The position numbers and the translations under genes were made by a program. The notes beneath the pieces were generated by a model. That model had not been told where the DNA came from. It saw only the letters and a list, made by a program, of their open reading frames with translations, and did not search any database. Below are positions 8,186-29,443 of a DNA stretch of 64,000 bases, one piece after another. Position 1 is the stretch's first letter. Each line of letters begins with the position of its first letter. The stretch is from a virus: positions 10,144 through 74,143 of IMG/VR virus record IMGVR_UViG_3300028844_003474; one strand, given 5' to 3'.

Positions 8186-8189
8186 CGCA

Positions 8190-8215
8190 AAATTAACAAG
8201 CAGCGATGTGGTAGC
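8190..8215 (+). promoter_or_regulatory. Repeated phage motif copy 1 (candidate phage RNAP promoter)
   Basis: AAATTAACAAGCA-GCGA-TGTGG-TAGC; same spacing as four other intergenic copies. Confidence 0.5.
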
Positions 8216-8281
8216 GCAATGCGGACGAGTCAGACGATGTTGTCTGCCCGTAAAATAGAATCGCACTGCGTTCACACACAC

Positions 8282-8689
8282 ATGGCAAAAGCCACTAACC
8301 TTGCAGCACGCACTACACAGCGCACTGCACGTCTGCTCGACGACACTGAGCGGAAGCAACTCGGACTGCCTGAACTGGCTGACCTGCTGATAGCACCACG
8401 TCCTACAGACGTCTATCATCATGCATTGGTCACCAAGGATGGTGCACCCATCGTAGCTGAGGGACGCGAAATACGCGTTCAGATCCAGAGACGAACAACC
8501 GTGGACAGTAAGACTGAGTACCATAAGCTTGCATGGTGCGACATCTTGGCTCTTCTCGGTGGTCGGGACTGGCGTCACTTTGCAGCTTGGAAGGGATGGT
8601 ATAACACTGCTGATGAATCTAAGGCTGTAGCTGAGGTTCAACTACAAGTTGTACTGACTCCTGCACCTGACATGGCTAAAGCGATATGA
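8282..8689 (+). CDS. Hypothetical early protein
   Basis: ORF track 8219..8689; the ATG at 8282 (MAKATNL...) is preferred because 8219 abuts the motif copy. Confidence 0.65.
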   Translation: MAKATNLAARTTQRTARLLDDTERKQLGLPELADLLIAPRPTDVYHHALVTKDGAPIVAEGREIRVQIQRRTTVDSKTEYHKLAWCDILALLGGRDWRHFAAWKGWYNTADESKAVAEVQLQVVLTPAPDMAKAI

Positions 8690-8916
8690 TCGATCCAGTA
8701 AGACGTACGACTCGAGTCGGCCCTGATTTGATTATCGAAGAGTTTGACTCGGAAGAAGGTCAATGGATCTGCATTGATGTGAGGCATGCTCCGTGTTGCC
8801 ATCATTGTGGTGACGATGATCATCACAGTTATGAATGTACAAACAGCGACCTGAACTGGACGCCTGAAGAGTCTGAACTGTCCATTGAGGATTCACCTCA
8901 GTATGGAGACTGCTAA
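8686..8916 (+). CDS. Hypothetical protein with a Cys/His cluster (possible Zn binding)
   Basis: ATGA overlap with the upstream gene; contains 'CCHHCGDDDHHSYEC'. Confidence 0.55.
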   Translation: MIDPVRRTTRVGPDLIIEEFDSEEGQWICIDVRHAPCCHHCGDDDHHSYECTNSDLNWTPEESELSIEDSPQYGDC

Positions 8917-8937
8917 GCGAATTTGATTCGCACACCT

Positions 8938-8965
8938 AGGGGTGGGGATAGTCCTCACCCCTTTA
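8938..8965 (+). terminator. Putative intrinsic terminator
   Basis: AGGGGTGGGGA-TAG-TCCTCACCCCT stem-loop followed by TTATT. Confidence 0.65.
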
Positions 8966-8990
8966 TTACCTATAATACACACTAATAAAT

Positions 8991-10091
8991 ATGTGTAACG
9001 ACAATAACCTGGCTGAAAAACTGCCGATCAAAGACACAAATCTTCCTCAAGCTCTAACGCCTGGCTACAATCCATGTAGAAAGTTCTTTCCGGCCTACAG
9101 TCCATTATTTGACACGTGGACCAGAGCAGATTATGTGACGTCTCTATCTAATGCTGCACATACTTGCGGTATAAGCATGGGAGAGTTCAAAGAGTGTATG
9201 CACACCTTGGTTTGGTATAATCCTGACATCTTCAACAGCTTGCAGTTAAGCATTTGGCACGCGTCTACTACTGATCCTGTACACAGGGTTGCAGCAGACT
9301 ACAGCGATGCGGCTCTGCATGCACAGTGGCGAGATACTTGGATGACGTATCAATCAAGAGATTGTAAGACACGAACTCGTATCATGGGTGTTGCATCTCA
9401 AGAAGCAATGCTAGACAATGAACGGCTTGCAAACTTGCACGCTGAACACTGGTTGCGTACGCTGAACGAAGCACTGAGTAAGTTGCATGTTGCACGTGGA
9501 TCACAACAGATGTCTCGTGCATTGTTTACGGATCCACACAAGGTGGGTTTTTACCTTGCCAGGTGGTTTGTAATGGAGTCGTATCATAAGCGTGATGAAG
9601 GCATCATAAATGCTACTCGAAGTGTTAGCAGAATCTACTCTAAGATGCAGCGTCACGTTAGACAGCTTGAAAACGCGATGTCAGAATCAAATTACGATGG
9701 ATACATAGATTTGAAGAATGCACAGACCACATTAAATGAGGTTCAGCATGAGATAGAGTCTATGGATAACGTTAAGACTAAACCTTGCGGCTGTCCTCAC
9801 TGTCAGTGTCAGGATCCAGACTATGTAACTGCTACTAAATCAGCAGAAAAGCTGAAGGAACAGATAGCAATGTTCAAGGAGCTTGGTGGCGATAGAAATA
9901 CCGAACGGTACACCGAGTTGTGGAATGCATTGCAGAATCAGCTTAATAAGGTGAAAGACATAGTATATGCTGTCAATAGTAAGTCAGAAGTAGAGTTTCT
10001 TATGACTGACGACTATCACGTTGTAGGCAAGCATATGGTTTGCTTTATTCACTTGGATTTAGTTCGTATGAGTAACAGAAAGAAGAAGTAA
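8991..10091 (+). CDS. Hypothetical early protein (366 aa)
   Basis: Long ORF with coiled-coil segments and a 'CGCPHCQC' cluster; no family recognised. Confidence 0.7.
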   Translation: MCNDNNLAEKLPIKDTNLPQALTPGYNPCRKFFPAYSPLFDTWTRADYVTSLSNAAHTCGISMGEFKECMHTLVWYNPDIFNSLQLSIWHASTTDPVHRVAADYSDAALHAQWRDTWMTYQSRDCKTRTRIMGVASQEAMLDNERLANLHAEHWLRTLNEALSKLHVARGSQQMSRALFTDPHKVGFYLARWFVMESYHKRDEGIINATRSVSRIYSKMQRHVRQLENAMSESNYDGYIDLKNAQTTLNEVQHEIESMDNVKTKPCGCPHCQCQDPDYVTATKSAEKLKEQIAMFKELGGDRNTERYTELWNALQNQLNKVKDIVYAVNSKSEVEFLMTDDYHVVGKHMVCFIHLDLVRMSNRKKK

Positions 10092-10170
10092 CGTGTTTGA
10101 GAAAAGCATCACATTTAACCGTGTGGTGTTTTTCTTTAGATATGACTCTGCCATCGCAAGCTCGACAGAG

Positions 10171-10196
10171 AAATGAAACCACGGCGACAGTGTAGC
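10171..10196 (+). promoter_or_regulatory. Repeated phage motif copy 2
   Basis: AAATGAAACCACG-GCGA-CAGTG-TAGC, upstream of the ORF at 10253. Confidence 0.6.
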
Positions 10197-10252
10197 GCAA
10201 TCGCGGCACACAGTGTGCTACGGAGCGCAGAAATTCCAAATACCTATACAGC

Positions 10253-10615
10253 ATGGCTGTAGCAACTAACATGGCGACTCGTAAAACTACGGGAAGCCGA
10301 CAGCTCACAACCGAAGAGCTCAAAGACGTAAGTCACATTGACTTGAGCGACAAGAAAGCGGTTGTGGCAAGACTCACTGAAGCGGATGGCAAGATGCGCC
10401 GTTTCTTGGTTGACCCTGCAGATGGTGAGTTCATCACTGTTCGCGGAAAGAAGATTCAGCTCTATGGAGTTGACAAAGACCCAGTCCGTAAGGCTGCGTG
10501 GCGGAAGAACGCTACGTGGAAGTGTGCGGATGACGTCGAGGAAGGAGAGGGCACCACGCGTGCTTACCTCGTGTACGAAGTGCCGATTAGCTTCGTAGAG
10601 GACGAGGATTGCTGA
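10253..10615 (+). CDS. Hypothetical early protein
   Basis: 120-aa ORF between a motif copy and a terminator; the N-terminus (MAVATNMATRKTT) resembles that of the 8282 ORF (MAKATNLAARTT). Confidence 0.7.
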   Translation: MAVATNMATRKTTGSRQLTTEELKDVSHIDLSDKKAVVARLTEADGKMRRFLVDPADGEFITVRGKKIQLYGVDKDPVRKAAWRKNATWKCADDVEEGEGTTRAYLVYEVPISFVEDEDC

Positions 10616-10634
10616 TATTGTCAGTGTGTGTGAT

Positions 10635-10666
10635 AAGCAGGGGAGTTAGTAGCTCCCTTGCTTTTC
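10635..10666 (+). terminator. Putative intrinsic terminator
   Basis: AAGCAGGGGAGTT-AGT-AGCTCCCTTGCTT stem-loop followed by T residues. Confidence 0.7.
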
Positions 10667-10688
10667 TACTTAGCGACTAGTTCATTGC

Positions 10689-10864
10689 AAGCTAGTTTTT
10701 CGACTAACTAACTATTTTACTGTCTAACTACCGTAATTAAGCTATGTTTTTTCGACTAACTAGCTATAAAGTTCGATGGTAGATCTTCAAATGAAACCCT
10801 CGCTACGTGATAGCAAGACAGAGTGAGTACGGGCCAAGCCATATACCACCTGTTTAGCTATAAA
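10689..10864. repeat. Short direct repeats in a non-coding AT-rich region
   Basis: TTTTTCGACTAACTA at 10696-10710 and 10748-10762, each preceded by AAGCTA; TAGCTATAAA at 10761-10770 and 10855-10864. Confidence 0.7.
10789..10814 (+). promoter_or_regulatory. Repeated phage motif copy 3
   Basis: AAATGAAACCCTC-GCTA-CGTGA-TAGC. Confidence 0.65.
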
Positions 10865-10931
10865 TCCATGGCTATACCTTAACTACCTTAGTTATTGTAT
10901 AGTCTTTTATTAACCTAATAAGTTTTTTATC

Positions 10932-11345
10932 ATGTGCAAAAAAGATAAAGAAGAAAAGCCAGAAGACTTTATTTGCAAAATAACATGCGGTAACGAAGGC
11001 ACTGCGTGTCTACTTACCTTCACAACTCATTTTACATTACATAGTTTCTTTCAAGCTATCGCAGCTAGCTATCCAGATGTAAATTCTGACAATCCAGTAT
11101 TGTTACGCTTCTCTGAAGACTATGATGGGTTTCGTATGACCCTTACTTGTACGGGCTATGCAGACAGTACGTTTTCTTTTAACATATCTGATTCTAACGT
11201 TGATTCTTTTTGTCAGTATGTTATTGGTGACCCTATTAACTATACTGTCAAAGATGTCTTCATTGGATGTATTCGCAATGAGATGACTAAGGTTACAGGT
11301 CGTTATGTTTCACACCTAAAAGAAGAATACCATGTCTTCCAGTAA
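10932..11345 (+). CDS. Hypothetical protein
   Basis: 137-aa ORF overlapping the start of the next gene. Confidence 0.6.
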   Translation: MCKKDKEEKPEDFICKITCGNEGTACLLTFTTHFTLHSFFQAIAASYPDVNSDNPVLLRFSEDYDGFRMTLTCTGYADSTFSFNISDSNVDSFCQYVIGDPINYTVKDVFIGCIRNEMTKVTGRYVSHLKEEYHVFQ

Positions 11346-11889
11346 TATGACAGAAAGGAACATCATCATATTTGATTTAGATGGTACTCTTGCTAATGTG
11401 AGTGTAAGACGTAGTCTTGCTGACTCTGCTAAAGCTAAAGTATTAGGTGAGGTTACTCATCCTTATGCTGATAAGGAGTTAGTGCAACAGGCTAATGAGG
11501 CTTGGTGGCATGAGTGGGAGGGAGTATCCGCCAATATCCAGTATGATAGACCTTCACCGGTTGCTGATATACTGCGTGGCTTCCATATGTTGAATAGATT
11601 TCACATTGTTATATTTTCTGGCCGTAATAATCGGCTTCATAATGTAACTTTGCGTTGGTTAGACAAGCATAGAATTCATTTTGATGATTTCTTTATTCGT
11701 CCTGCTAACGACATGCGACCTGACGAGGTGTTAAAGAATGAGATGCTTATGTCTAAACCTGAGGGGTGGCGTCGTAGAGTAAGAGTTATTTTTGACGATC
11801 GTAATAAAGTCGTCAAAGAATGGAAAAAGCTTGCATTGCTTCCTGAACACAGCTTTTCTCTAGTTCAAGTTGCTGATGGTGACTTTTAA
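11332..11889 (+). CDS. HAD-family phosphatase (T4 PNK 3'-phosphatase-like domain, stand-alone)
   Basis: Motif I 'IIIFDLDGTLAN', motif II 'FSGR', 'RP.D..LK', motif IV 'IFDDR' and C-terminal 'QVADGDF'. Confidence 0.85.
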   Translation: MSSSNMTERNIIIFDLDGTLANVSVRRSLADSAKAKVLGEVTHPYADKELVQQANEAWWHEWEGVSANIQYDRPSPVADILRGFHMLNRFHIVIFSGRNNRLHNVTLRWLDKHRIHFDDFFIRPANDMRPDEVLKNEMLMSKPEGWRRRVRVIFDDRNKVVKEWKKLALLPEHSFSLVQVADGDF

Positions 11890-12101
11890 AAAAAAATCCT
11901 GCTGCGGCAGGTATGGGACGTGGTTGAGAACTGTGACCGCAGTCGGTTTAGTACCGCCACTCCCATTAAACAGGTGATAAACACAGCCTTAAATGTGTTT
12001 GATTTTGGTTGACCATGACAAGATGGTCGTCAGTAGATTGTTAGGGGTAGGGGATCAAAACGTTGGTTCCCTACTGCTACCAACAAAGAGTACATAATTT
12101 T

Positions 12102-12186
12102 GCCACTGTGATGAAATTGGTAGACATGACAGACTTAAAATCTGTTGGACAGTTTGTCCGTACCGGTTCGAATCCGGTCAGTGGTA
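12102..12186 (+). tRNA. tRNA-Leu(TAA)
   Basis: Acceptor GCCACTG/CAGTGGT, D-loop TTGGTAGAC, anticodon arm ACAGA-CTTAAAA-TCTGT, long variable arm, T-arm GGTTCGAATCC; no encoded CCA. Confidence 0.95.
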
Positions 12187-12220
12187 CTAAAACATTTAGC
12201 ACACCTAACGTGCTTTTTAT

Positions 12221-12294
12221 ACTCCTGTAGCACAACCGGATAGTGCAACATCCTTCTAAGATGTAGGTTGTGGGTTCGAATCCCGCCAGGAGTA
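12221..12294 (+). tRNA. tRNA-Arg(TCT)
   Basis: Acceptor ACTCCTG/CAGGAGT, anticodon arm ACATC-CTTCTAA-GATGT, T-arm GGTTCGAATCC. Confidence 0.95.
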
Positions 12295-12310
12295 CTTTTA
12301 TTTTAATATT

Positions 12311-12442
12311 ATGTCAAAGATTGTATCCGTAGCTAAAGAAACTGTCTCTACTAAGAGACCAGGTATTCACAGCAAAACCAAAACCTCTAATCACAAGAGC
12401 AGTAAATGCTATCGTAAAAAGTATAGAGGTCAAGGTAAATAA
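12311..12442 (+). CDS. Small basic peptide ending in YRGQGK (43 aa)
   Basis: Manual translation MSKIVSVAKETVSTKRPGIHSKTKTSNHKSSKCYRKKYRGQGK*. I recall a C-terminal YRGQG(K/R) motif in small proteins of aquatic phages. Confidence 0.75.
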   Translation: MSKIVSVAKETVSTKRPGIHSKTKTSNHKSSKCYRKKYRGQGK

Positions 12443-12444
12443 AA

Positions 12445-12851
12445 TCCCTATACCGTCTGATTAGAGTCAGACACTTAGGGCTGGTCAGTTAAAGACCTTA
12501 AAACCCATGAGAGGCTATGGTTCCTCTCGGTTTGTCGGTGGTGTTAGCCGAAGTAATCTCCACCTAATGGTACATGAACGTACAAGTGGCCTCTGTCTCA
12601 TACTCTCTAAAGTTGGCAGAGGCTGCGGATCTCATTGGGGTCTGACTGAGCCTTATTACCCAAATCAGTTACTATCTAAAAGTCCTACGCTAAACAATCG
12701 TAGGCATTATTTATCAGTCAAGCAATAGTGTACGTGTTACCGCTTGATGTATAGACCACGTACCTGTCCCAACTTGGACAGCTTAGTCATAGTTAGAGAG
12801 AGTGTAGCTGTTATGCCAGCCTACGGGTCGCAGTGCACTCTCTTGTTTTTT
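12445..12851 (+). ncRNA. Candidate large structured ncRNA (unassigned)
   Basis: About ten consecutive stem-loops plus a putative pseudoknot, ending in a long hairpin with a U-tract, between tRNA genes; no convincing ORF. Confidence 0.55.
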
Positions 12852-12862
12852 CACAAATAAAT

Positions 12863-13303
12863 ATGGATAGAGAAACAGAAATTACCGACAAGCTATTGCA
12901 GCTTATGAGAGTACAACAGATTAACCACAACCTTGAGAATGAGTGTATTAAGCTGCGTCATGAGGTCGGAAATTTGGAAGAGCGTGACAATGGTCGTCTT
13001 ATCGAAGATTTGCGCAAAGAAAACTCTGATCTTAGAGGTGAACTCTATAAGCTCAAGGGGCGGGTGCAGCTCATGGATAATATTGTGTATCTCTACGAGG
13101 CTGAGAGGTACTTTGATTTCAAAAAGCCACGACTGTCAAAAGTTTGTCGTGAGCTTAATATGGATATGCAGGATGCAGTTGATGTTCTAGCACAAACAGG
13201 CCTCATTGAATGGTCTCGACGTGAGACATTCTGTAAACCAAACACAAAGCTGGATATGATGCAGTACTGTGTGTTGAGGTTTATAGATCACAAAAACAAG
13301 TAG
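12863..13303 (+). CDS. Coiled-coil protein with a C-terminal IF2 N-terminal-like domain
   Basis: Likely start MDRETE at 12863. The C-terminal 'PRLSKVCRELNMDMQDAVDVLAQTG...KPNTKLDMMQYCVL' resembles the Bacteroidota IF2 N-terminus (RL.KV.RELN......V.FL..KG....P.TKI....Y..L). Confidence 0.65.
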   Translation: MDRETEITDKLLQLMRVQQINHNLENECIKLRHEVGNLEERDNGRLIEDLRKENSDLRGELYKLKGRVQLMDNIVYLYEAERYFDFKKPRLSKVCRELNMDMQDAVDVLAQTGLIEWSRRETFCKPNTKLDMMQYCVLRFIDHKNK

Positions 13304-13305
13304 AC

Positions 13306-13713
13306 ATGGACATTAGCAAGACAAAGTTCATCAAGAACTTCGTGTTTAAAAAGATTAGCAAAGAAGGGTCTTACGGTGACAACCAAAGATATATCACTTA
13401 TCAAGCTTGGCTTCACTTACCAAACAACTACAGGCTTTCGATAATAACCAGCCCTGTTGGTACAGGACTTACTTCAGTTCCTAACACGTATGAAATTGGG
13501 TTCTTTTCTAATCATCATCATAATGGGATGATTAAAGCACACAAGGAAGTGTATTGTTTTAACATCAAAGGTGTAGAAAAAGAGGTTGTTGCGTATCATA
13601 CGACTGCTGAATATCTCACTCTTGAAGATCTTGAAGAATACCTTGTAGAAATCAGTGAGTGGCCTACTCGCACCAAAGAGATGGATATCGAAGAAGGTTA
13701 TATTGACTCTTAA
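13306..13713 (+). CDS. Hypothetical protein
   Basis: 135-aa ORF in the operon; contains 'F/LPNNYRLSII...YEIG'. Confidence 0.65.
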   Translation: MDISKTKFIKNFVFKKISKEGSYGDNQRYITYQAWLHLPNNYRLSIITSPVGTGLTSVPNTYEIGFFSNHHHNGMIKAHKEVYCFNIKGVEKEVVAYHTTAEYLTLEDLEEYLVEISEWPTRTKEMDIEEGYIDS

Positions 13714-13735
13714 AATAAATAACCCCTTCGTTTTA

Positions 13736-13812
13736 GCGCTTGTAGCTCAGTTGGTCAGAGCATCCGACTCATAATCGGCAGGTCGTAGGTTCAAGCCCTA
13801 CCAGGCGCACCA
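13736..13812 (+). tRNA. tRNA with CAT anticodon, most likely Ile2 (lysidine-modified) rather than Met
   Basis: Acceptor GCGCTTG/CAGGCGC with encoded ACCA; anticodon arm CCGA-CTCATAA-TCGG as in bacterial ileX-type tRNAs; lacks the three GC pairs of initiator tRNA. Confidence 0.85.
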
Positions 13813-13924
13813 TAAGGTTGAAACGTCAATCTTGCAGAGCAAACAAAACTGAGTATAGGTTTGGAATAATCTTCATGATTAGTTTTTTTGGTTTAGGAGT
13901 TTTCCAGTTCTCCTAGCTCTGCTT

Positions 13925-13950
13925 AAATGAACCCTACGCTACGTTGTAGC
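13925..13950 (+). promoter_or_regulatory. Repeated phage motif copy 4
   Basis: AAATGAACCCTAC-GCTA-CGTTG-TAGC, 30 nt upstream of the ORF at 13980. Confidence 0.65.
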
Positions 13951-13979
13951 AAATATATATAATACACAAACACAAAATA

Positions 13980-14408
13980 ATGCAAGAACTATTTTATGCA
14001 GTTGTAGCAGTTGCCATGGCTATGGCTGCAGTCACAGTTTTCTATCTATCGTACAATATTTCAGAAGCTAAAGCTTTGCGTAAAGCGTGCGATCATTGTA
14101 ATTCTTATCTTAAAGAGTTAGAAGCAAAGAACACTAAGTTAAAATCACAGATAGAAAGAGCAGAAACAAAGTCTGCAATGTACTATGCTGTGAATCGAAG
14201 TCTAAAAGAGACTATTGACGTAATCCATACAGATCATAAAACGCTTGTAATCAAGTGGAGTACAGTTGAATCTGCATATCATAAGCTTCTTGAGCAACTG
14301 GAACAATTTACTTCAGAGGCTGAAGATCTAAGAGAATTAGAAAAAGACAATAATCAGCTTAGTATATTCTCTCAAATTAATAACGCAATAAAAACCCCTA
14401 TGGAATAA
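13980..14408 (+). CDS. Membrane-anchored coiled-coil protein
   Basis: N-terminal hydrophobic helix (LFYAVVAVAMAMAAVTVFYL) followed by heptad repeats. Confidence 0.7.
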   Translation: MQELFYAVVAVAMAMAAVTVFYLSYNISEAKALRKACDHCNSYLKELEAKNTKLKSQIERAETKSAMYYAVNRSLKETIDVIHTDHKTLVIKWSTVESAYHKLLEQLEQFTSEAEDLRELEKDNNQLSIFSQINNAIKTPME

Positions 14409-14731
14409 TGATAGACGAGCTTCTTTACGAAGAGGACGACAACCCAGACAAAAACGAAGACTCAACAAAAGAACTATCTAATGATTTAACTACTGTTAAA
14501 TGGTGTACAGTAGTCCTTAGATCTATTAAAAGAGCTTTTAAAGAGAATCGAACACAGGTTATTTTATCTGATGAATTCCAGGCTACGTATCCAATGGGTG
14601 CGTGGCCTATTTTATTAGATCAAATTAGAAAGCTCATGGAAACTATGGAAGACTATGAGCGATGCATTGAAATAGTAGAGTTAAAAGAAGATGTAAATAT
14701 AAAATTACTTACAGAAAATGTTTCAGAATAA
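14408..14731 (+). CDS. Hypothetical protein with a UVR-like C-terminal motif
   Basis: 'METMEDYERCIEIVELK' resembles the UvrB/C 'EDYE.AA.lrD' motif. Confidence 0.55.
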   Translation: MIDELLYEEDDNPDKNEDSTKELSNDLTTVKWCTVVLRSIKRAFKENRTQVILSDEFQATYPMGAWPILLDQIRKLMETMEDYERCIEIVELKEDVNIKLLTENVSE

Positions 14732-14951
14732 AGAATGGCAACAAAAATTAAACGCTAGCATAAACAAGGGTGACTTCCTATTATTCCTGTCACCTGAAAA
14801 TACAGAGCGATACGATTTTTTAGTTACAAGCCTTCCCCCAGAGTATCAGCCTCTCATACATGCTGCATTTTACGTGTTTCAAGATGAGAAAATGATACAA
14901 GAGTTATACAAGGCGGTGCCTGCCTTAGTAAAAGGTGCAATTAAGTCATAA
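14718..14951 (+). CDS. Hypothetical protein
   Basis: 77-aa ORF with overlapping junctions in the operon. Confidence 0.55.
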   Translation: MFQNKEWQQKLNASINKGDFLLFLSPENTERYDFLVTSLPPEYQPLIHAAFYVFQDEKMIQELYKAVPALVKGAIKS

Positions 14952-14968
14952 TATATAAAAATAAGAAC

Positions 14969-15439
14969 ATGGCTACAACAGAATATTTTAGTGAAGTCGT
15001 AGAAGTTTCTAACGACAAGCAAGACAAGAGCGGTAACACTTACCGTACTATTAGAGTTCAGGCAACGCCTGCAGTGAGTCGGACTAATCCGTTTACAAAA
15101 CAAGAGGAAGTGTGCCCCGGTACATCACGTACGTTTACTGTCAATTCATGGCAGGGCGGCGTTGATTCTCCATGGAATCACATTTTTAACATGCCTGCAG
15201 GTACTCCAGTACTTGGAACACAGGTTAAGTTAGATGTGCAACCGTACGAGATTGACGGAAAAACGTTTACCACAGCCACTATTCTCGTTCCTGATACAGA
15301 GGATAGTCCCACATGGACACGGAGTTTAGACACTGTGTTACGCTGGGACAACTTTACTCCTGCAGGTAGTTTCGTCCCTCCGATTAATGTTATCGAAGAG
15401 ACTGCTACAGAAGAAGTTACAGAGGCTTTAGAAGTCTAA
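14969..15439 (+). CDS. Possible single-stranded DNA-binding (OB-fold) protein
   Basis: Beta-rich ('QDKSGNTYRTIRV', 'PYEIDGKTFTTATILV') with an acidic C-terminal tail; followed by a terminator. Confidence 0.4.
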   Translation: MATTEYFSEVVEVSNDKQDKSGNTYRTIRVQATPAVSRTNPFTKQEEVCPGTSRTFTVNSWQGGVDSPWNHIFNMPAGTPVLGTQVKLDVQPYEIDGKTFTTATILVPDTEDSPTWTRSLDTVLRWDNFTPAGSFVPPINVIEETATEEVTEALEV

Positions 15440-15486
15440 TTTAACTTAGGATAAAACAAAAACTAGACTAGTGTTTCATAACTCTT

Positions 15487-15511
15487 GGGGGGTTTTCTAG
15501 TTCCCCCTTTT
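15487..15511 (+). terminator. Putative intrinsic terminator
   Basis: GGGGGG...TCCCCC stem followed by TTTT. Confidence 0.5.
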
Positions 15512-15528
15512 CCTAAAAACATTACAAA

Positions 15529-16197: not shown

Positions 16198-16200
16198 AAT

Positions 16201-16629: not shown

Positions 16630-16635
16630 TACATT

Positions 16636-16677
16636 TGTAATGTTAGAGGAGTCTAAATCGGGCTCCTCTACATTACA
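16636..16677. terminator. Long hairpin (terminator or processing site)
   Basis: TGTAATGTTAGAGGAGTCT...GGGCTCCTCTACATTACA inverted repeat. Confidence 0.55.
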
Positions 16678-16711
16678 TTAATGTTGACTAAAAAATTTGT
16701 CACATTTAGTC

Positions 16712-16798
16712 ATGGAATTTATAAAAGAGAATTGGATTGATTTTACGTGCGCTGTTTACTTTGTAGCAGCCTTTATTTTATTTACACTACTGACATGA
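16712..16798 (+). CDS. Small membrane peptide (28 aa)
   Basis: MEFIKENWIDFTCAVYFVAAFILFTLLT*, with an ATGA overlap into the next gene. Confidence 0.45.
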   Translation: MEFIKENWIDFTCAVYFVAAFILFTLLT

Positions 16799-20039: not shown

Positions 20040-20117
20040 CATACATACGTTTTATCTATTTGCAATAAGAGTGGTATGCATTACATTGGTGATGCGTACT
20101 ACTCTTATTTACATCTA

Positions 20118-23100
20118 ATGAAAAGTATTTTATCATCAATAGCGTTAGTACTTACAGCGCTTTCAATAACAGCACAACCGCCTACGCCTGATTTTTCTTG
20201 CGGTCCAAGCACTTGGGATGGCCTAGGTAATAACCCTACGCCGGATGCGCAGGCTTTTATCTGCTATACTACCTCAGCTCCAATAGGTAAATATATTTAT
20301 TGGAACCCGTTTGTTCATAATCCTGACATGACTGAACTTGCAATGCCTGCTGAGGACTTTGCAGACTGGAATTGGGATAATATTTACGGCATGAAAGGTC
20401 GTTATGGAATTAATTTTCCTAGCTATTTAGGAGATGGAGATACATTATCTGCTCAAGTTTTTGAAACAAAACTGAATCCAACTAGTGAACCAGATGGAGA
20501 TCTTCAAACTTTTACAGATCACCAATTTGATTTTTATGGAGGAAACTACAAGTTCAATATTTTACACCTTGAGCAAGGTACTATTGTAAAAGTGCATCCG
20601 GGAGCAAGCATTGAGATTCATACTGCGTTAAGCATTGAGTACGGAGCTGTTCTAGAAATTATGCCTGGTGCAACTGTATTGCTTAAAGCTACTAGAGACA
20701 ATATAGCTGTGACTGACGTTCAAGGTGCGATTGAAGGTACTCTACAAAAAGAAGTTTACTTTGATGTAAGTGACACTTGGCAAAGTCTTTCTCAATTTAA
20801 TAAAGAACTTAGGTTTGTATTTAATCCGGGTATGTATAACGTAGACTTACATAAAGTTGCTTTAGACATACAGGCAGCTGCCACAGTACCATTGGCTTTT
20901 GGAAATTCAGAGCCAAGTGTTCAAATTGGTTATTGGGGAAAACGACCCACTTTCATAGAAACTCAATCTATGTATGACTTTGCTGCAATCCACACATATG
21001 AGTCTCCTTCTAGTTCTTTTGAACTTGTTGGAGACTCTAATCTTTTTGTAGGAGAAGCTGTTTTAAACACAGATGGATTTGTAATTAGCGAAAACGTCGG
21101 TCAAGAGTTTGCTTTAAGAACAAACAGCATGGCAGGTCATTTTTATAATTACAACGAGGGAGTTAGTATTCTCCCGATCTATCCTCCTACAGAAGACATT
21201 GGAACATCAGATGAAGCATTGCTAAACCACTGGTTTAACAGCGATGACTTTACAGGATTTGCAGATGAGACTATTAACACAACCTCTGATATATCTAGTT
21301 TTTCAAAGACTCCAATAGAGTTAGATAGAACTTTTGCAGTGTCTTTAATGGGAGTAACTAACAGTTTAGAAGACTTTAAAATTGTAGTTGAAGGTAAGTT
21401 TGACAGCAATAAATTTATTTCTGTCCAAAACTCTACTATAAGCCCGACCTTATTTGGAGTTGAACTCCCTTACCCTGGAGCTACTGCTACTTATATTGGA
21501 TACCCAGATGCATATCCTGAACAAAGTGTTTTCTTTGAGTCTACTGCTATTGCAGACCCTCCAAACAGTCTTTTATTTGGAGTGGATTTGTATTCTAGAA
21601 CAGGAGCTGATGATTACTCTTTGTACAGAGGAGTAGATTTTAGCGGCTTGTCTGTTTTAAATAACAGAACAGGAAATTATTTAGATACATATGAAACCTT
21701 ATTTACACTGCTTGCAACAGCTTTAGACGCTCAGTTAGCTTTGTTTGACATAGCTCCTCTTATAGGAAGACAAGATAGTCGAGACTTTAAGATTGACGCA
21801 GACACAGATAAGATGTATGAGTCTACAAGTGGAGAAGCTTTTCCTATTCCTGTTTCTAATTTACTTATTTGGGACGACACCGCTCCTCAATACCCAGGCG
21901 TAGAAATCACAGACTTTTATAACATAGAAGACATGAAAATCTTCTATGCAATCGGAGATACGATTAGACCTGACGAAATGTTAGCCTATAATTACAATAA
22001 TCCTTGTGATCCACAAACTATTGAAGGTGTAGGATATGACAATTATTCTACGTTTAAAGAAATAGGACTTAACTGGCTTAATAAAGGAGGCGTTTCAACT
22101 AGTGGAGCTCCTGTAGGCTCTCCTCCTGGAAGTGACACTGTTTATGCAACACGTACTAATGCTCCTGTATACAGAAAGACAGAGCAAGCTTATGTAAATA
22201 ACAAACCTGTTTTAGGTTCTATGAAAGAAGCTAGAGTTCCTGTAGGACCTGGTAATGTTGGAAGTACCGAGATTTACGATTGGACTATTGAAGAATTAAA
22301 CGACATGAACGAGTTTACTCTTTTGCGATTAGCAGGAGTAACTTTGTTAGGCGATACGCTTACCATTGCAATTGTTCCTTTAGCTACAGATGAAGACTAC
22401 AGTGCTACAGACATTGATTTGTTTGAGTCATCGGTTGCTGTAAATCCAATCATGTATTTGTTACCTCCAACAGATGTGCATGTAATGAGTCGAAAGTGGG
22501 GGTCTTACGGAAGAGGAATTAATGATTTCAATGACTCTCTTCAACTTGTCATAGACTTTGAGGCTTTAGACTTTGTAACAAATGGAGCTAACAGTTTTTC
22601 AAAGCTATTTATTGATGCTCCTGTCAAACAAGTTGGAGCTTGTGGTCTTTCCGGAGACAATCTTGTAGTAGCTACATCTACTGGTAATTTATATACCTGG
22701 GCTCCAGATTTTGAGTATGAAATTGATATGAATAGCACGTACAATATGCCAAATGAAAGTGGCAGTAGTGGAGACTACGGTAGCGGAGCTGTAGTTGACT
22801 TGTATTTTACTACTACTCAAGCAGACTTTAACGGAGACGGCTGCGTCACAACTGCTGATCTTCTTATATTACTTGGTCATTTTGGTACCAATGTTACTCC
22901 TGGTAATTTTCAAAGTGTTGCAGCTGATTTAAACTGTGATGGTGTTATTAGTACATCTGACCTTCTTATCTACTTAGGCTTTTTTGGACAATGCGCTTCT
23001 GATAGTGAAATTCCTTCTGAAGAAGCTGGAACTGTCTTACAAAAAAGAGCAGCGTGGTATTTTGGAAATAACTTTAATAATGATCATGTCAGCTATGATA

Positions 23101-23486
23101 TTATTGACGATTATCCTTCGTTTTCTCAAAGTCAAAGGGATTTTCTAAATCTGTGGCCTTATCCTGGTAAAATAACAGTTGTAGATGATTTAAATATGGT
23201 CATAGCTGACAAATGGCTAAACGGTCCTACGACCAATAATGGCGTTACTGGGTATTCAATAGAATTACCTGCTAATATGCCTACTTCAGCGCAATTAGAC
23301 ACAACCTCTGCTAAATATAGTGTTGATCTCCCTCAAACAGATCCTTCATATCGCATTTACATCGAATGGCGTGATGCTGTAAGAACTTTCCCAGGTATAC
23401 CTGGCTCAATAAACCATATATGTTTAGGGTGTAAAGAAGATCCTAATGCAATTTTCCCCCTGACTCCAACTTTTGTTGCCAATTAA
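20118..23486 (+). CDS. Large secreted protein with a dockerin-like Ca-binding repeat pair
   Basis: Sec signal MKSILSSIALVLTALSITA|Q from the ATG at 20118; repeats 'ADFNGDGCVTTADLLILLGHFG' and 'ADLNCDGVISTSDLLIYLGFFG' at about 22820-22995. Confidence 0.8.
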   Translation: MKSILSSIALVLTALSITAQPPTPDFSCGPSTWDGLGNNPTPDAQAFICYTTSAPIGKYIYWNPFVHNPDMTELAMPAEDFADWNWDNIYGMKGRYGINFPSYLGDGDTLSAQVFETKLNPTSEPDGDLQTFTDHQFDFYGGNYKFNILHLEQGTIVKVHPGASIEIHTALSIEYGAVLEIMPGATVLLKATRDNIAVTDVQGAIEGTLQKEVYFDVSDTWQSLSQFNKELRFVFNPGMYNVDLHKVALDIQAAATVPLAFGNSEPSVQIGYWGKRPTFIETQSMYDFAAIHTYESPSSSFELVGDSNLFVGEAVLNTDGFVISENVGQEFALRTNSMAGHFYNYNEGVSILPIYPPTEDIGTSDEALLNHWFNSDDFTGFADETINTTSDISSFSKTPIELDRTFAVSLMGVTNSLEDFKIVVEGKFDSNKFISVQNSTISPTLFGVELPYPGATATYIGYPDAYPEQSVFFESTAIADPPNSLLFGVDLYSRTGADDYSLYRGVDFSGLSVLNNRTGNYLDTYETLFTLLATALDAQLALFDIAPLIGRQDSRDFKIDADTDKMYESTSGEAFPIPVSNLLIWDDTAPQYPGVEITDFYNIEDMKIFYAIGDTIRPDEMLAYNYNNPCDPQTIEGVGYDNYSTFKEIGLNWLNKGGVSTSGAPVGSPPGSDTVYATRTNAPVYRKTEQAYVNNKPVLGSMKEARVPVGPGNVGSTEIYDWTIEELNDMNEFTLLRLAGVTLLGDTLTIAIVPLATDEDYSATDIDLFESSVAVNPIMYLLPPTDVHVMSRKWGSYGRGINDFNDSLQLVIDFEALDFVTNGANSFSKLFIDAPVKQVGACGLSGDNLVVATSTGNLYTWAPDFEYEIDMNSTYNMPNESGSSGDYGSGAVVDLYFTTTQADFNGDGCVTTADLLILLGHFGTNVTPGNFQSVAADLNCDGVISTSDLLIYLGFFGQCASDSEIPSEEAGTVLQKRAAWYFGNNFNNDHVSYDIIDDYPSFSQSQRDFLNLWPYPGKITVVDDLNMVIADKWLNGPTTNNGVTGYSIELPANMPTSAQLDTTSAKYSVDLPQTDPSYRIYIEWRDAVRTFPGIPGSINHICLGCKEDPNAIFPLTPTFVAN

Positions 23487-23487
23487 A

Positions 23488-26400
23488 ATGAAATACATTA
23501 AAAATACATTAATTAGCATCTTCTTAATAGGTGCATCTTTTGGAAGTCATGCGCAATATGCAGGCCAGTTCTCTGGAGTTCCTATAAATCTAGAAAGTGT
23601 TCCTCACCTTGAATATCTAATAGAGCTTGGTAGTATAGCGTGTACTACTGCTCCTTCGTGTGTAGTAAACGCTATGTCTTTTGATAATCCAGGAGCTGTA
23701 GAAGCTCTTCAAGGATATTCTTATGTAGGCACATCCGATCTTATTATTCAAAATTCTCAACATTTATCGTTGTGCCAAGGTTCAGCTCCTAATGATCCAA
23801 ATGGAGTTACTAAAATTATACCTCTCAATACAATGTTTGAGAAAGGTATTAACATTGATAGACTTTGGGTAGGTAGGCAAGTTACTCCAGTTTCAATCCC
23901 TCAAAGTCATTTAATTATAGACACTCAATATGATAGTCTTATTGTTGATGAAGTATGGGTTCCTTATGGTGCTACTCTTGAAATTATAGGACCCAATCCT
24001 TTAATCGTTAGAAAAGAGCTTCACAACAGAGGCACTATTATATGTGATGAAAACTTGTTAATTCCTGTAACCACGGATGATCCAGACGCTATAAAAGGTT
24101 TTCATGCTTTGTTTGAACAGAAAGGAGAAGTTATAGGAAGATACAGTGCTGAAGTTATGCGAAACGAACGTCCTGAGTTTCTTAACTGGGATTGGGTTAT
24201 AGAGAACTTTGGAGTTCAAGCTACTTTTATAGACTCGCTTCAAATGCTAGGACTAGATCCATATGCTATAGGATTGTATGAAGAGATCTATGAGTCACAT
24301 TTACTAGAAGGAGACCCCTGGTATATGTACAAATTAGAGCTAGATGGTGTAGAAGAAGTTTATAATCAGTTTTCAATGTCAGGAGTCCCTGTAAAAGGGG
24401 TTCGGTTTGGAGGTCAATATAAAGATTTTGCTCGAGTTGCACTGTACAAAGATGCAAGTCCTAGATTCCCATATAAATGGCAATTTCCTGAAGAAACTAC
24501 ATTACCTACTAGTTACAGTTTTTTGAGTGAACTAGGTGACGAAATTGCAGCTATTTATATGAAACAGGAAGATTTAAATTATTATCATAATGTAGTATTG
24601 AACAATGCGCCTGAATTTTTTTCTAGCGGAAGTCTAAACGATTATGAAAATTACAGTGATTCATACACTACTGGAGAGTGGGAGCGAGTTTCGTTTATGA
24701 GACCAGAGCTAACGAATGAAATTGGTTTTAGCACTGGAATCCGCACTAGATATCAATATGGCTACGATGCTGAAACTGATACTTATATAGGAGAAGGCAA
24801 CTGGTGGCCTTGGCAGTATGCAGACGGGGACCCTGGTTACCCTGATAATGTTCCTCTTCCTTGGGTAGATCCTGAAACAGGAGCGCTTGATTATAGTATT
24901 GAACAGATTGCACCAGAATATCTTGATAAAATATCTTATCAAGATTATAGAAACTTAGGTACTTATGTCAACGGTTCTGCATTTACTACTATAGATACAG
25001 ACTTAGAAGAAATTTTTGTAAGCTTTGAGTACTGTTTGTCAGAAAATATAATTCATACTTTAGAAGGACCAGAAATTTTACCAAATACAAGATTAGTTAA
25101 TAACCCTATTGCTCAAGGACTTGACACTGTTTGGACTTGGAGACCTGGAGGGTGTACAGATACTATTGTATCTACATATGGATTGTTTGACGCTGCACAA
25201 TCAACAAACTCAGGAATTCTTTGGAATTTTTATTTAATGAATGATCCAACTCAAGACAACATTTGGAATTTAACTGAAATGATGGAAAGAGATACTACAG
25301 TAGCGGGCTACGATAGTATTTATGATTACAATTGGTATTACAGAAATGAGTTAGAAGCAAGTCAAAGTATTTTTAATGGATGGGATATATGGTTTTCAAA
25401 AAGTCCAGATGTTGGGCCTAATTCTTACAGAGAAGGAAGTTTTTTTGGAGATGTAGAAACCATGGGTAGCAACGGTAACCAAATATGGGAAAACCCTATT
25501 AAATCATTCATAGCAGATACTGCAGGTCGTTTTATGCCTCAGTTATATGGAGATGCGATAAATTGGGATTCAATTCTTGCACAGAATAGTTATTATGGTA
25601 ACATAAATCTAGCTCCAAAGTTAGATAGCTGGCTTCCAGATATTCCAGAGCTTGGTTACATGATGGATTTTTATCCAGATAGTATGAGAATGGATCCAGT
25701 AGAAACAAATCCTGCTTATGCTTGGTGGGGTGCTGATTGGGTTGCTCCTGATCATTCAACGCCTCAGCCGTTTCCTACCATGTCATTTCAATATGTTGGA
25801 GGTGTTCAAAATACCGAGTGGATTGATAGGTATACTGGATATTCTTGGATGAATACTTTAGATGCATACAACGATTCTAGGATGACTTATCATCCACAAA
25901 CGTTTGAATCAGATCCAATAATACCTAATCTTCCGCCAAATAATAGTGAAGACCATCTTATATCATATAAGTTACCTACTGCTACCGATTGGGTTTATAC
26001 ATACGCGCCTAACGGCTTATTGTATGAAGCTCAAACATGGAGTGAATGTCTTGAAGTAAATGATACAACCTTTTGTATTAATTATTTTAACGGAGTTAAC
26101 CAAGCTTATGATGAGTGGGGTATTTCGATAGAAAATGATTTAACTAGTATTTCTAATAGCGCATACGATGACGCTGATCTAGAAATAGCTTTTAATAACT
26201 ATTATACTCGACGTAACAGATGGGGTTCTCTAGCAAATCCTTTACATGGTTATTTAGACTTGGATTTAGTTGCTGACCGCTATTTTGAAGATTATCCTGA
26301 ATCTAATCACTTAGAATTTGCTTGGTGGAATCCTCAAAACACTACTGGCACTTCTAATACAAATCCTGGAAATGTTCTTAATGGTACACGAAAATACTGG

Positions 26401-29400
26401 AGACGTAAGTATCATAGATATGGAGACGAAATTGTTCAAGACGAGATTGAATATTTCCTTACGTTGCTGACAGAGCAGTTTTTTGCTCAAAATGGAGAAG
26501 GTTTTTCTAATGAGTTAACTGAAGTCATTCTATCATTTTTAAATGAAGACGGAATAGCACCCGGTACTCCTGCATTTAACTGGTTAATAAGCGCTCCTGT
26601 TAATCCTAATGGTTATGTCGGTATTGGGCAATATGCAATGCCCGGATCAGGAGTTTGGGCACAAAATAGTTCAGGATCTCCCGTAAGTCTGGAAATAACT
26701 GCAGATATGGGTGTCTATGATTTTGAATTTCCTTTAAGCACAGGTAATGAAGTTTATCTCGGATCAGCAGGTCCTGGAAGTGATGGAACTGGATACGGAG
26801 GACGTGCAGCAGTTGCAAGTCAATCATCTCAGAATTACACTCCTGCAGATCATTCTACAATAGTTGTACTTGACTATGTAAATGACAGTACGTATATGCC
26901 TTGGATCTTTTTACACCATCGATTTATGGACGATGCTACAAATGGTTCTGAGCAAATTTTTGAAGACAACCATAACTCTATGCCAAACTTTCCATGGGTC
27001 TTTACAGACTCTACTAAAGTTAGAGCTTCTAATTACGTTGAAGAATATGGTCCACACAATCAACAACCCTTGTATGTAAACATTCCTCAACCTCTAGATA
27101 CTAATGAAGGTGCTTGGTGCTTTATCCCTACTCTTTTTCAAGACACGGGATCTACTTGGTATGATGTAGAGTCTGGCAACATTTATAATAGACTTGGATT
27201 AGAGTTGTTTGATAGTAATGGGGATATTACTAACATCATTTATTTAGATGAAGGAGATACTCTGTGGATAAGGCATAATGATCCGTACGATTGGCCTATT
27301 AAAGGCAAAATGTATTTTACCAACTTATATGGAGACATTAATGGAGATGGTATAATTAATATTAATGACCTTATAGAGTTGTTTACATACTTTTTGTTAT
27401 GTGAGGATGAAGCTTCTGAAATTGCATATTTTGACGCAAATGGAGACGGGTGTATTACTACATCTGATTTCATAGTAGTCTTAGCAAACTTTGGAGGTAC
27501 TGTAGGTAGTGCTATTGGTGACTTTAGCGGAAGTGTATGGGATGAAGTAGGCCCTGAAAGATTGGCCTACAGTGGAAATAGATGGGATCACCCTGATTGG
27601 CCTACTGCAGACATTGAAGCAGCTTTTGTTGGAGGTACTTTCCCAAGTATCTATGAAATTGGAAACGTTAATGCTACAAAGATTTTAAATATGCCTGGAG
27701 AGAAAATTCAGGTGTTTAACAGCAGATTAAACAGTTTTATAGAAGGTCAAAACTCTATTCAACTGCCAACAACTGGAGGTCCTTACTTTATTGTTACAGA
27801 CAGAACAGTCTCATATTATGATGTAACTGAAGTTCCTGACGTTGTTACTGTAACTGCTACAGATGCTACTATTAGCGATGCTAACGGAGGTAAAACTGCA
27901 GTTCTTCCTTCTTTAGCTGCTGCATACGTTGGGGGCGCTAATCAGTTTTGGACAAACTTCTATGAAGACATGAAGACAATAGATGGAGGATTTGATGCAG
28001 ATAATGCTGATGCTCCTACGTTGGCTCAGGTTTATTACGGTATTAACTCTGGAGTAAGCGCTAATCCTCTTAATTTAAACAATGCTAAAGTTGAAGGTTT
28101 AATTGACATGTTTGGCGCAGGTGATGCTAGACATGGATATACTCTTGAATCTTCTATTGGCGTTCAAAATGACGATCGATGGACTAAAACTGCTACAGGA
28201 TACACCAACTTTAAGCTAAATAGAGATTATCCACTTTTTCAGCCTACTATGGTTCCTCTGGCTTACGCTTTACCTAGAGTTAGAAGTTCTAGAGACGAAG
28301 AGCAAATTTTACCAAGATTTGAAACACAGGCAAAAATAGATAGACTTTTTAACGACGGTATAGCTGAGAATTTTGATGAGTTTAGCGAACTTTCTGGAAG
28401 AAGAGAGCCTGGCGTTACAGAATGGGGAGGAGACATTAAAGTACATTATGATGTTCCTTTACATAATGGTGTATTAGCAATGTGTGATTTCATGACACTG
28501 CAAGATTATTTTGAATTTAAGATGTATGGAGTTAGTCCTAAGTTTGGACAAACTAATGCAGGTTCTTCAAATCCTAGAACTGTTACTGAAAGCTTTGGTA
28601 CCGTTTACAATACTGGAGCAGTTGAAGGTGTTCCTAACGCTCCTGGTATTGGATACGCTCCAAGCTTGTGTAACAATCTTGCAGATTACAGCAGTAATAT
28701 TGTAATTCCATTTTTAACTGCTAACATTGGAAATACCGTAGTATTACCTCAAGATCCTACGCCTGTTACTCAAGACGGAATTCAGCGTAATACTGATGAT
28801 GCAGGTCACCAAAACTGGTTTGGAAATTCTGCTGCATTTGTACATAACGGAAGTTTTGGACCGCTTGTATATGATTTTAATATGAATGGTACTTGGGATG
28901 CAGATGATTTGACTATTTGGAATAACTTGGTTACAGTATGGACTGACAATAATATCAGAGAAGGTCAAGAATCTTATTCTGATGCAAGTTATTACAGGCC
29001 TGCAACAGACGCTTTAAATGAAGCTGTTAACGTCATACATGACTATGAGGATGGAGGATCTTATTATGCTTCTTGGAATTTTAACAAATGGTTTGATGCT
29101 ACTGCTACTGCAGATCCATTCGGCTACGTTGACAACTGGCATGCTTGTTTAAACCAACCAGAATGGAATTTAAACCTAATAAACCTTGTAGAATTAACTA
29201 CAACTGCGTTTAAAGGAACAAGTGTTAAAGAAGATTCATTTTTGTACAACACTGATAGAACTGGATTTAATCCAAGTTTACTTGTTCCTACAGTCTTAAA
29301 CAATTATGGAAAAGTTGCTATAGGCGACTATGTACCCGCCGGAGATTTACTTGAATATCAAGTTGTACCAAGTAGTAATTACTTTCCAGTTACAATGTAT

Positions 29401-29412
29401 TGGCATCCTTGA
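23488..29412 (+). CDS. Very large secreted protein with dockerin-like repeats (probable paralog of the upstream gene)
   Basis: Signal MKYIKNTLISIFLIGASFGSHA|Q from the ATG at 23488; 'GDINGDGIININDLIELFTYF', 'FDANGDGCITTSDFIVVLANFG' and a third 'YDFNMNGTWDADDL'; acidic and rich in aromatic residues. Confidence 0.8.
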   Translation: MKYIKNTLISIFLIGASFGSHAQYAGQFSGVPINLESVPHLEYLIELGSIACTTAPSCVVNAMSFDNPGAVEALQGYSYVGTSDLIIQNSQHLSLCQGSAPNDPNGVTKIIPLNTMFEKGINIDRLWVGRQVTPVSIPQSHLIIDTQYDSLIVDEVWVPYGATLEIIGPNPLIVRKELHNRGTIICDENLLIPVTTDDPDAIKGFHALFEQKGEVIGRYSAEVMRNERPEFLNWDWVIENFGVQATFIDSLQMLGLDPYAIGLYEEIYESHLLEGDPWYMYKLELDGVEEVYNQFSMSGVPVKGVRFGGQYKDFARVALYKDASPRFPYKWQFPEETTLPTSYSFLSELGDEIAAIYMKQEDLNYYHNVVLNNAPEFFSSGSLNDYENYSDSYTTGEWERVSFMRPELTNEIGFSTGIRTRYQYGYDAETDTYIGEGNWWPWQYADGDPGYPDNVPLPWVDPETGALDYSIEQIAPEYLDKISYQDYRNLGTYVNGSAFTTIDTDLEEIFVSFEYCLSENIIHTLEGPEILPNTRLVNNPIAQGLDTVWTWRPGGCTDTIVSTYGLFDAAQSTNSGILWNFYLMNDPTQDNIWNLTEMMERDTTVAGYDSIYDYNWYYRNELEASQSIFNGWDIWFSKSPDVGPNSYREGSFFGDVETMGSNGNQIWENPIKSFIADTAGRFMPQLYGDAINWDSILAQNSYYGNINLAPKLDSWLPDIPELGYMMDFYPDSMRMDPVETNPAYAWWGADWVAPDHSTPQPFPTMSFQYVGGVQNTEWIDRYTGYSWMNTLDAYNDSRMTYHPQTFESDPIIPNLPPNNSEDHLISYKLPTATDWVYTYAPNGLLYEAQTWSECLEVNDTTFCINYFNGVNQAYDEWGISIENDLTSISNSAYDDADLEIAFNNYYTRRNRWGSLANPLHGYLDLDLVADRYFEDYPESNHLEFAWWNPQNTTGTSNTNPGNVLNGTRKYWRRKYHRYGDEIVQDEIEYFLTLLTEQFFAQNGEGFSNELTEVILSFLNEDGIAPGTPAFNWLISAPVNPNGYVGIGQYAMPGSGVWAQNSSGSPVSLEITADMGVYDFEFPLSTGNEVYLGSAGPGSDGTGYGGRAAVASQSSQNYTPADHSTIVVLDYVNDSTYMPWIFLHHRFMDDATNGSEQIFEDNHNSMPNFPWVFTDSTKVRASNYVEEYGPHNQQPLYVNIPQPLDTNEGAWCFIPTLFQDTGSTWYDVESGNIYNRLGLELFDSNGDITNIIYLDEGDTLWIRHNDPYDWPIKGKMYFTNLYGDINGDGIININDLIELFTYFLLCEDEASEIAYFDANGDGCITTSDFIVVLANFGGTVGSAIGDFSGSVWDEVGPERLAYSGNRWDHPDWPTADIEAAFVGGTFPSIYEIGNVNATKILNMPGEKIQVFNSRLNSFIEGQNSIQLPTTGGPYFIVTDRTVSYYDVTEVPDVVTVTATDATISDANGGKTAVLPSLAAAYVGGANQFWTNFYEDMKTIDGGFDADNADAPTLAQVYYGINSGVSANPLNLNNAKVEGLIDMFGAGDARHGYTLESSIGVQNDDRWTKTATGYTNFKLNRDYPLFQPTMVPLAYALPRVRSSRDEEQILPRFETQAKIDRLFNDGIAENFDEFSELSGRREPGVTEWGGDIKVHYDVPLHNGVLAMCDFMTLQDYFEFKMYGVSPKFGQTNAGSSNPRTVTESFGTVYNTGAVEGVPNAPGIGYAPSLCNNLADYSSNIVIPFLTANIGNTVVLPQDPTPVTQDGIQRNTDDAGHQNWFGNSAAFVHNGSFGPLVYDFNMNGTWDADDLTIWNNLVTVWTDNNIREGQESYSDASYYRPATDALNEAVNVIHDYEDGGSYYASWNFNKWFDATATADPFGYVDNWHACLNQPEWNLNLINLVELTTTAFKGTSVKEDSFLYNTDRTGFNPSLLVPTVLNNYGKVAIGDYVPAGDLLEYQVVPSSNYFPVTMYWHP

Positions 29413-29417
29413 TCATG

Positions 29418-29443
29418 AAATGAAACCCTGGCTATGATATAGC
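29418..29443 (+). promoter_or_regulatory. Repeated phage motif copy 5
   Basis: AAATGAAACCCTG-GCTA-TGATA-TAGC filling the 33-nt gap before the helicase gene. Confidence 0.65.

Follow-up and report, generated by a model that had tools for sequence, protein, structure and literature searches.

A strand-specific 26-nt motif as a candidate early promoter in an uncultured marine crAss-like phage and its close relatives

The RNA polymerase that crAss-like phages inject is structurally unusual, and a candidate for the signal by which it finds its genes is described here. It lies in IMG/VR virus record IMGVR_UViG_3300028844_003474, a 74,143-bp record estimated to be 87% complete, of which bases 10144–74143 (64,000 nucleotides (nt), hereafter the window) were analyzed, and it consists of five copies of a 26-nt element placed ahead of genes on a single strand. 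An original prediction, made from the letters of the window, proposed these copies as the promoter of the virion RNA polymerase or as the operator of a phage regulator. Examination of the full record and of related phages indicates that the element is probably a phage-specific promoter, while the chance that, overall, this promoter is read by the virion polymerase is about even. A literature search identified no paper that defines an early promoter of crAss-like phages or a promoter for the crAss-type polymerase, and the motif is a candidate, open to experimental test, for the signal at which the injected enzyme of these phages starts.

The five elements, numbered 1 to 5 in order of position (Table 1), match the predicted pattern exactly and with identical spacing, and all five are on the plus strand. 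None of 100 dinucleotide-preserving shuffles contained a match (expected count 0), and a pattern scan of the entire 74,143-bp record returned the same five sites and no sixth. A weight matrix constructed from the five copies assigns them 35–43 bits, and the next-best position on either strand of the record scores 7.5 bits, a gap of ~28 bits. Independently, a general repeat finder placed the five elements at the top of its direct-repeat list as families D1 and D4. All five copies fall outside credible genes and at the heads of gene blocks, as had been predicted, and the open reading frame (ORF) start at 8219, close to copy 1, is probably an over-extension. The 5' block of the element is spelled AAATGAAACC in the window. 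The sequence difference that the prediction had drawn among the copies also holds, with copies 1–2 sharing GCGA-N5-TAGCGCAAT and copies 3–5 carrying GCTA-N5-TAGC. The common tail of copies 1–2 may reflect a duplicated promoter-plus-gene unit; the ORFs downstream of these two copies have weak mutual similarity (E 0.068), so that paralogy is weakly suggested.

The phage that carries these elements is an uncultured marine crAss-like phage. Both its portal and its large terminase have matches in families characteristic of crAss-like phages, and the best matches of the terminase among cultured phages are to crAss-like phages of Flavobacterium, Cellulophaga, and Bacteroides, at ~40% identity. The motif is confined to the plus-strand replicative block of this genome (8.2–42 kb), and neither pattern nor matrix scans found a copy on the strand that encodes the structural proteins and the polymerase. 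The first part of the block holds small ORFs of unassigned function, a polynucleotide kinase, and three tRNAs, the second part, headed by copy 4, an amidase, DNA polymerase A, and two dockerin-bearing giant ORFs, and the third part, headed by copy 5, a helicase, a DnaB-like helicase, a primase, rIIA/rIIB, and an exonuclease. Copy 5 takes up nearly all of the 36-nt gap between the stop codon of the 1979-amino-acid (aa) ORF and the start of the helicase. The minus-strand blocks carry the portal, the terminase, and an ORF of 5286 aa. This layout is that of Cellulophaga phage phi14:2, and the motif occurs only in the block that matches the phi14:2 early class. For phi14:2 it has been reported that the rightward replicative module as a whole is early, transcribed by gp66, a virion polymerase resistant to rifampicin, and that the host enzyme transcribes the leftward polymerase and capsid modules from sigma-70-like promoters (bioRxiv 10.1101/2020.03.07.982082).

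Conservation of the element was followed in a set of close relatives (L007, L009, L010, L139, and L155) and in three more informative genomes (G001, G006, and G007), with the window phage designated G000. Scans for the exact pattern produced three single matches among viral contigs, one of which (L007) belongs to a true close relative, and 52 matches among metagenome contigs, of which only L139 and L155 are related. These two are 97%-identical strains that keep all copies, with one substitution at a variable position (copy 2 of L139), and they add little information. The tRNA cluster of L139 differs from the window by gaps and an 87% patch (over window positions 11892–12849, around 11892–11970 and 12445–12638). 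In L007, with a helicase 92% identical to that of the window phage, copy 5 is conserved at 26 of 26 positions where the neighboring coding sequence diverges. In L009 and L010 (89% terminase identity), copy 1 is partly preserved: its AAAT.AA start is present, as is its 3' half through TAGCGCAATGC, and the GCGA box is replaced. The junction that holds this copy is 91% identical to its counterparts in L009 and L010, compared to ~79% over the 9-kb alignment.

The three more informative genomes carry the same layout under other spellings. G001, a complete 85-kb genome with a terminase 85% and a helicase 65% identical to those of the window phage, has eight copies of the 26-nt layout on its replicative strand, with four motif-plus-small-ORF units in tandem; its 5' block has the spelling AAAAGAAGAC, or AAAAGA(A/T)G(A/G)C, and the element ends in (T/G)AGC. 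Five copies are present in G006 (75.6 kb) and three or four in G007 (38.9 kb), both with the 5' block AAGTGAAAAC. The copies in the relatives are always on the replicative strand, ~19 of the 21 sites in the four genomes are outside long ORFs, and the helicase gene is directly preceded by one copy in all four (G000, G001, G006, and G007). What the sites share is AA..GAA..C over positions 1–10, a G at position 19, and TAGC at positions 23–26, and the near-invariant positions across the 21 sites are A1, A2, G5, A6, A7, C10, G19, and T23-A24-G25-C26. Within one genome, all copies share a private spelling of the 5' block, with three spellings over G000, G001, and G006/G007. In a cross-genome test, a matrix was trained without the target genome and the sites of that genome were then ranked. 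The sites of the window phage placed 6, 8, and 9 of 148,286 positions; those of G006 placed 1, 2, 3, and 6 and those of G007 placed 1, 3, and 4, although these two genomes share a spelling and trained each other's matrix, so that their ranks are not an independent test. That left-out sites rank near the top indicates that the families are homologous and not look-alikes.

The signal is confined to a small subclade. No recognizable motif family was found in the more distant G002–G004 (G002 has 64% terminase and 46% helicase identity) or in ~60 contigs with a helicase at ≤55% identity, and in most of those ~60 contigs a coding gene or a different AT-rich element precedes the helicase. One lineage with helicases ~46–49% identical to that of the window phage (L187, L190, L193, L198, L199, L201, and L205) shows a different conserved element of its own, AT-rich and ~60 nt ahead of the helicase gene. 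This element contains AATTTGATATG and a TATCTTAA-like box and may be a host-type promoter or a lineage-private signal.

The anatomy of the 21 sites narrows the kind of signal that the element can be. The original prediction had seen two classes in the palindrome of copies 3–5. The palindrome is present in those three copies, but it is not conserved outside the window genome, which disqualifies it as a structural feature. Its DNA hairpin is weak (−1.7 to −2.6 kcal/mol), and copies 1–2 have a G-A mismatch. The stem positions pair 0–2 of 4 in G006/G007 (0–1 in G006) and mostly 2 of 4 in G001. An N4-type hairpin promoter was rejected, as the full 4-pair stem occurs in only 3 of the 21 sites, and the absence of the palindrome from the relatives indicates that the element is instead a linear sequence signal. 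A structured RNA was also rejected, with fold z-scores of −1.5 to +0.9 (flanks included) that are no better than those of shuffled sequence; a search of Rfam found no family match at the motif, only tRNAs. The third candidate rejected was a promoter for the host primary sigma factor. Boxes of the sigma-70 type and the Bacteroidota type are not enriched (11 found against 14.8 expected; 14 against 13), and inspection of the copies revealed no TTGACA/TATAAT or TTTG/TAnnTTTG boxes within the motif or at a fixed offset from it, in agreement with the earlier statement that the motif is not the Bacteroidota sigma-70 consensus.

The next start codon lies anywhere from 1 to >100 nt past the motif, with a gap of 1–5 nt in five cases, and this variability fits a promoter and argues against a translational signal. 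The shortest spacing is informative as to where a transcript would begin. In both G006 and G007 a single nucleotide lies between the motif and the ATG of an orthologous 80-aa ORF, and the encoded proteins align from residue 1 at 61% identity. With the motif ending 1 nt before a conserved ATG, the start, if the element is a promoter, must be at approximately position 27–28. Position 27 is a purine in 16 of the 21 sites. Such a start implies that several motif copies would give leaderless or nearly leaderless transcripts.

A candidate reader is encoded on the opposite strand, in the 5286-aa ORF. In tblastn searches, aa 3000–3450 of this ORF matched crAss-like 'putative RNA polymerase' genes with E values down to 1e-14, including the catalytic-subunit gene of crAss002. 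The ORF also matched a 6543-nt gene of phi14:2 (E 1e-4), and the length of that gene is that of the characterized 2180-residue virion polymerase gp66. Three aligned sequences, from this phage and its relatives, all keep the DFD.D loop, and in the 5286-aa ORF DFDND replaces DFD(I/V)D. A search of the polymerase region against solved structures, using the single sequence and a 3-sequence profile, did not reach the gp66 entry and gave no informative match, and a search of the record for a T7-like polymerase, run without a working control, found none. Elsewhere in the same ORF are an N-terminal lysozyme/endolysin-like stretch (aa 102–208) and a PD-(D/E)XK nuclease (aa ~1086–1250). The giant polymerase protein is 28–33% identical among these phages and the large terminase 85%. 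The private spellings, combined with a polymerase that has diverged where the terminase is conserved, fit a phage-encoded reader that co-evolves with its signal and not a conserved host sigma factor.

Table 1. Locations of the motif copies and of associated features (window coordinates, except for the last two rows, which refer to G001)
Feature	Position	Strand	Remarks
Copy 1	8190–8215	+	5' block AAATTAACAA, a divergent member; first copy past the divergent junction; 66 nt before ATG at 8282
Copy 2	10171–10196	+	56 nt before the 120-aa ORF at 10253; small ORFs on either side
Copy 3	10789–10814	+	117 nt before the ORF at 10932; small ORFs on either side; heads a unit of ORF 10932, polynucleotide kinase, tRNA-Leu, and tRNA-Arg
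Copy 4	13925–13950	+	After tRNA-Met; 29 nt before the ORF at 13980
Copy 5	29418–29443	+	Begins 6 nt past the stop of the 1979-aa ORF (29412); ends 5 nt before the helicase ATG (29449)
5286-aa ORF	42055–57915	-	crAss-type RNA polymerase region at ~aa 3000–3450; DFDND catalytic loop at aa 3425
Conserved junction region	8060–8300	+	C- and G-run-rich; holds copy 1; 91% column identity to L009/L010
Terminator-like hairpin	10635–10663	+	T-rich tail; between ORF 10253–10615 and copy 3
AACTCTCTA examples in G001 (L092-L096)	76359, 74911, 70848, 67419, 11220, 9012, 3114	-	
AACTCTCTA examples in G001	30783, 51217	+	

Taken as a phage-specific promoter, the 26-nt element would start the transcription units of the plus-strand early/replicative block, and its reader would most likely be the crAss-type two-barrel RNA polymerase within the 5286-aa ORF, delivered along with the DNA. 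The signal would be composed of a 10-nt upstream recognition block (AAATGAAACC in the window phage), a 12-nt spacer that is genome-specific and semi-conserved, with the G at position 19, and a TAGC initiation block that ends just before the start point. Transcription would start 1–2 nt past TAGC, usually at a purine, and leaders would be short or absent. Promoter function, start point, and the identity of the reading polymerase are all predictions from sequence. The promoter half of the original claim is supported, as the element is promoter-like in its strand, position, early-type block, and conservation, and the genome encodes a polymerase homologue; the half that names the reading enzyme is a prediction. 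Under a tentative proposal, which falls slightly short of an even bet, this clade would supply the first promoter class defined by sequence for the injected two-barrel RNA polymerase of the crAss type: a linear signal of 26 nt in two parts, which co-evolves with its polymerase and yields leaderless or near-leaderless early messages.

Several observations weigh against reading by the injected polymerase. In phi14:2, the early transcripts made by gp66 have no common upstream motif (bioRxiv 10.1101/2020.03.07.982082), and the degenerate core of the element has one match each in phi14:2 and FpV4, which is the level expected by chance and not an enrichment. No motif precedes one or two small ORFs that lie on the same strand after the junction and ahead of the first copy (for example, window ~7870–8097 and G001 14978–15358), and none precedes the 366-aa ORF (8991–10091), which lies behind a terminator-like hairpin. 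The replication genes of crAss001 are classed as middle, not early, and by that precedent copies 3–5 may not be read by the injected enzyme. Finally, because the record is 87% complete, a phage-encoded specificity factor could have gone undetected. The 366-aa ORF is the one early-region unit without the motif; in the sequence ahead of it (window 8930–8991, plus strand), a hairpin rich in G/C and tailed by T comes first, and then a perfect TATAAT hexamer ~15 nt before its ATG at 8991.

The main rival to the virion polymerase as reader is a host RNA polymerase redirected by a phage specificity factor, either a divergent sigma-like protein or a MotA-like activator bound to the 5' block, in which case the element would mark delayed-early or middle genes. 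This is unlikely, but it is the alternative that survives best. The factor could be one of the many small early-region ORFs without known function, or could be missing from an incomplete record, but the record encodes no sigma region 2, and the ORFs scanned yielded no DNA-binding domain. The private lineage spellings would suit any phage-encoded reader, and the middle promoters of phage T4 use a phage-private upstream box; the element, however, has no −10-like or −7-like host element at a fixed offset. Similarly, the middle class of the crAss001 replication genes is what a redirected host enzyme would produce, yet copies 1–2 are at the very head of the block, ahead of any phage protein being made, and the replicative module of phi14:2 is rifampicin-resistant.

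The operator that the original prediction offered as its alternative would be bound by a phage regulator to repress or time the early units and would not itself be the promoter; this reading appears improbable. A conserved 26-nt site at unit heads, partly palindromic in three copies, is what an operator might look like, but the motif is strictly strand-specific and the palindrome is absent from copies 1–2 and from all relatives. An operator would also have to act on a promoter, and no separate promoter consensus accompanies the motif, no host-type promoter boxes occur at a constant offset from it, and at copy 5 and several of the sites in the relatives the stop codon upstream and the ATG downstream are too close together for a second promoter to fit. 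A role in the RNA itself or in ending transcription, as a processing site or as a sequence-specific pause or terminator for the phage polymerase, would suit sites that are intergenic and same-strand and in some cases directly follow a stop codon (copy 5), and T7 early RNA is cut at intergenic RNase III sites between the early genes, but such a role is no more probable than the operator, as there is no stable or shared fold and no Rfam match, the stem positions are unpaired in the relatives, the convergent junction near 42058, where the block ends, has no copy, and the 1 to >100 nt to the next ATG speak against a translational role.

The phage-specific promoter favored here has counterparts among characterized systems. 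Promoters of the T7 group are contiguous stretches of ~23–26 nt, composed of an upstream specificity part and an initiation part that ends at the start, with spellings that vary from one related phage to another in step with each phage's own polymerase. The signal architecture proposed for the 26-nt element is the same, but the enzyme differs, in that the window reader would be a two-barrel polymerase. The closest working analogue is Thermus phage P23-45, in which a linear motif likewise lies directly upstream of the starts of the first-expressed genes, the polymerase is likewise part of a giant virion protein, and the pre-early motif is shared only by related phages that carry the virion two-barrel polymerase gp96 (bioRxiv 10.1101/2022.12.01.518664). 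P23-45 belongs to another phage family and its polymerase to another lineage, and its motif is AT-rich; further, starts and occupancy were measured in P23-45, whereas the window motif is known from sequence alone.

For phi14:2 itself, the likeness lies in the rightward replicative module facing leftward polymerase and capsid modules and in a homologous polymerase with the DFD.D loop. The differences are that no common early motif was found in phi14:2, that the core of the window motif is not enriched there, and that the window polymerase is embedded in an ORF of 5286 aa. The phi14:2 enzyme is active only on single-stranded DNA in vitro. Phage N4 also has a few promoter copies that head its early genes, read by an injected T7-like polymerase active on single-stranded templates, but the N4 promoters are extruded DNA hairpins with a 3-nt loop, where the inverted repeat is found in 3 of 21 sites of the window clade, and the polymerase families are unrelated (PMC13434306). 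In the PeSL promoter-terminator cassettes of T4-type phages, repeated regulatory signals enclose small early ORFs where the genome is hypervariable, and every PeSL promoter is sigma-70-like and comes with a stem-loop terminator (PMC2839356). The tandem motif-plus-small-ORF units of G001 recall this arrangement, but the window motif is not sigma-70-like and a clear upstream terminator was found for copy 3 only. The early region is hypervariable between the relatives of the window phage as well, and the stretch from the junction to the tRNA cluster has no nucleotide similarity to G001, though both of its flanks are similar.

A sharply defined motif in three natural spellings, each with a strongly diverged polymerase, provides concrete templates for in vitro initiation and specificity-swap tests. 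If the promoter is read by the virion polymerase, G000, G001, and G006 would constitute three natural signal-and-polymerase pairs for specificity swaps. Early transcription units of uncultured marine crAss-like phages could also be predicted with the help of the motif.

Additional features of these genomes were noted alongside the motif. Two of the related contigs (L009 and L010) stop ~850 bp past the copy-1 junction and a third (G006) starts ~1.7 kb before its first copy; this junction may be a physical genome end or a variable region that breaks assemblies. G+C content is 47% over the next 2.5 kb (8.1–10.7 kb), compared to ~37% elsewhere. G001 has a second short element, AACTCTCTA, located 0–19 nt before at least 12 start codons on both strands (examples in Table 1), which may be either a second class of promoter or a signal at start sites; the window showed no counterpart of it. 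The copy of this element at 51217 shortly precedes the region of G001 (from ~51398) that matches the giant polymerase ORF. In the window, rIIA-like and rIIB-like genes are located at 35627–38994 (plus strand). The giant ORFs of 1136 and 1979 aa (20076–29412, plus strand) carry type I dockerin-like and EF-hand-like calcium-binding repeats, and are positioned within the replicative block with the DNA polymerase on one side and the helicase on the other.

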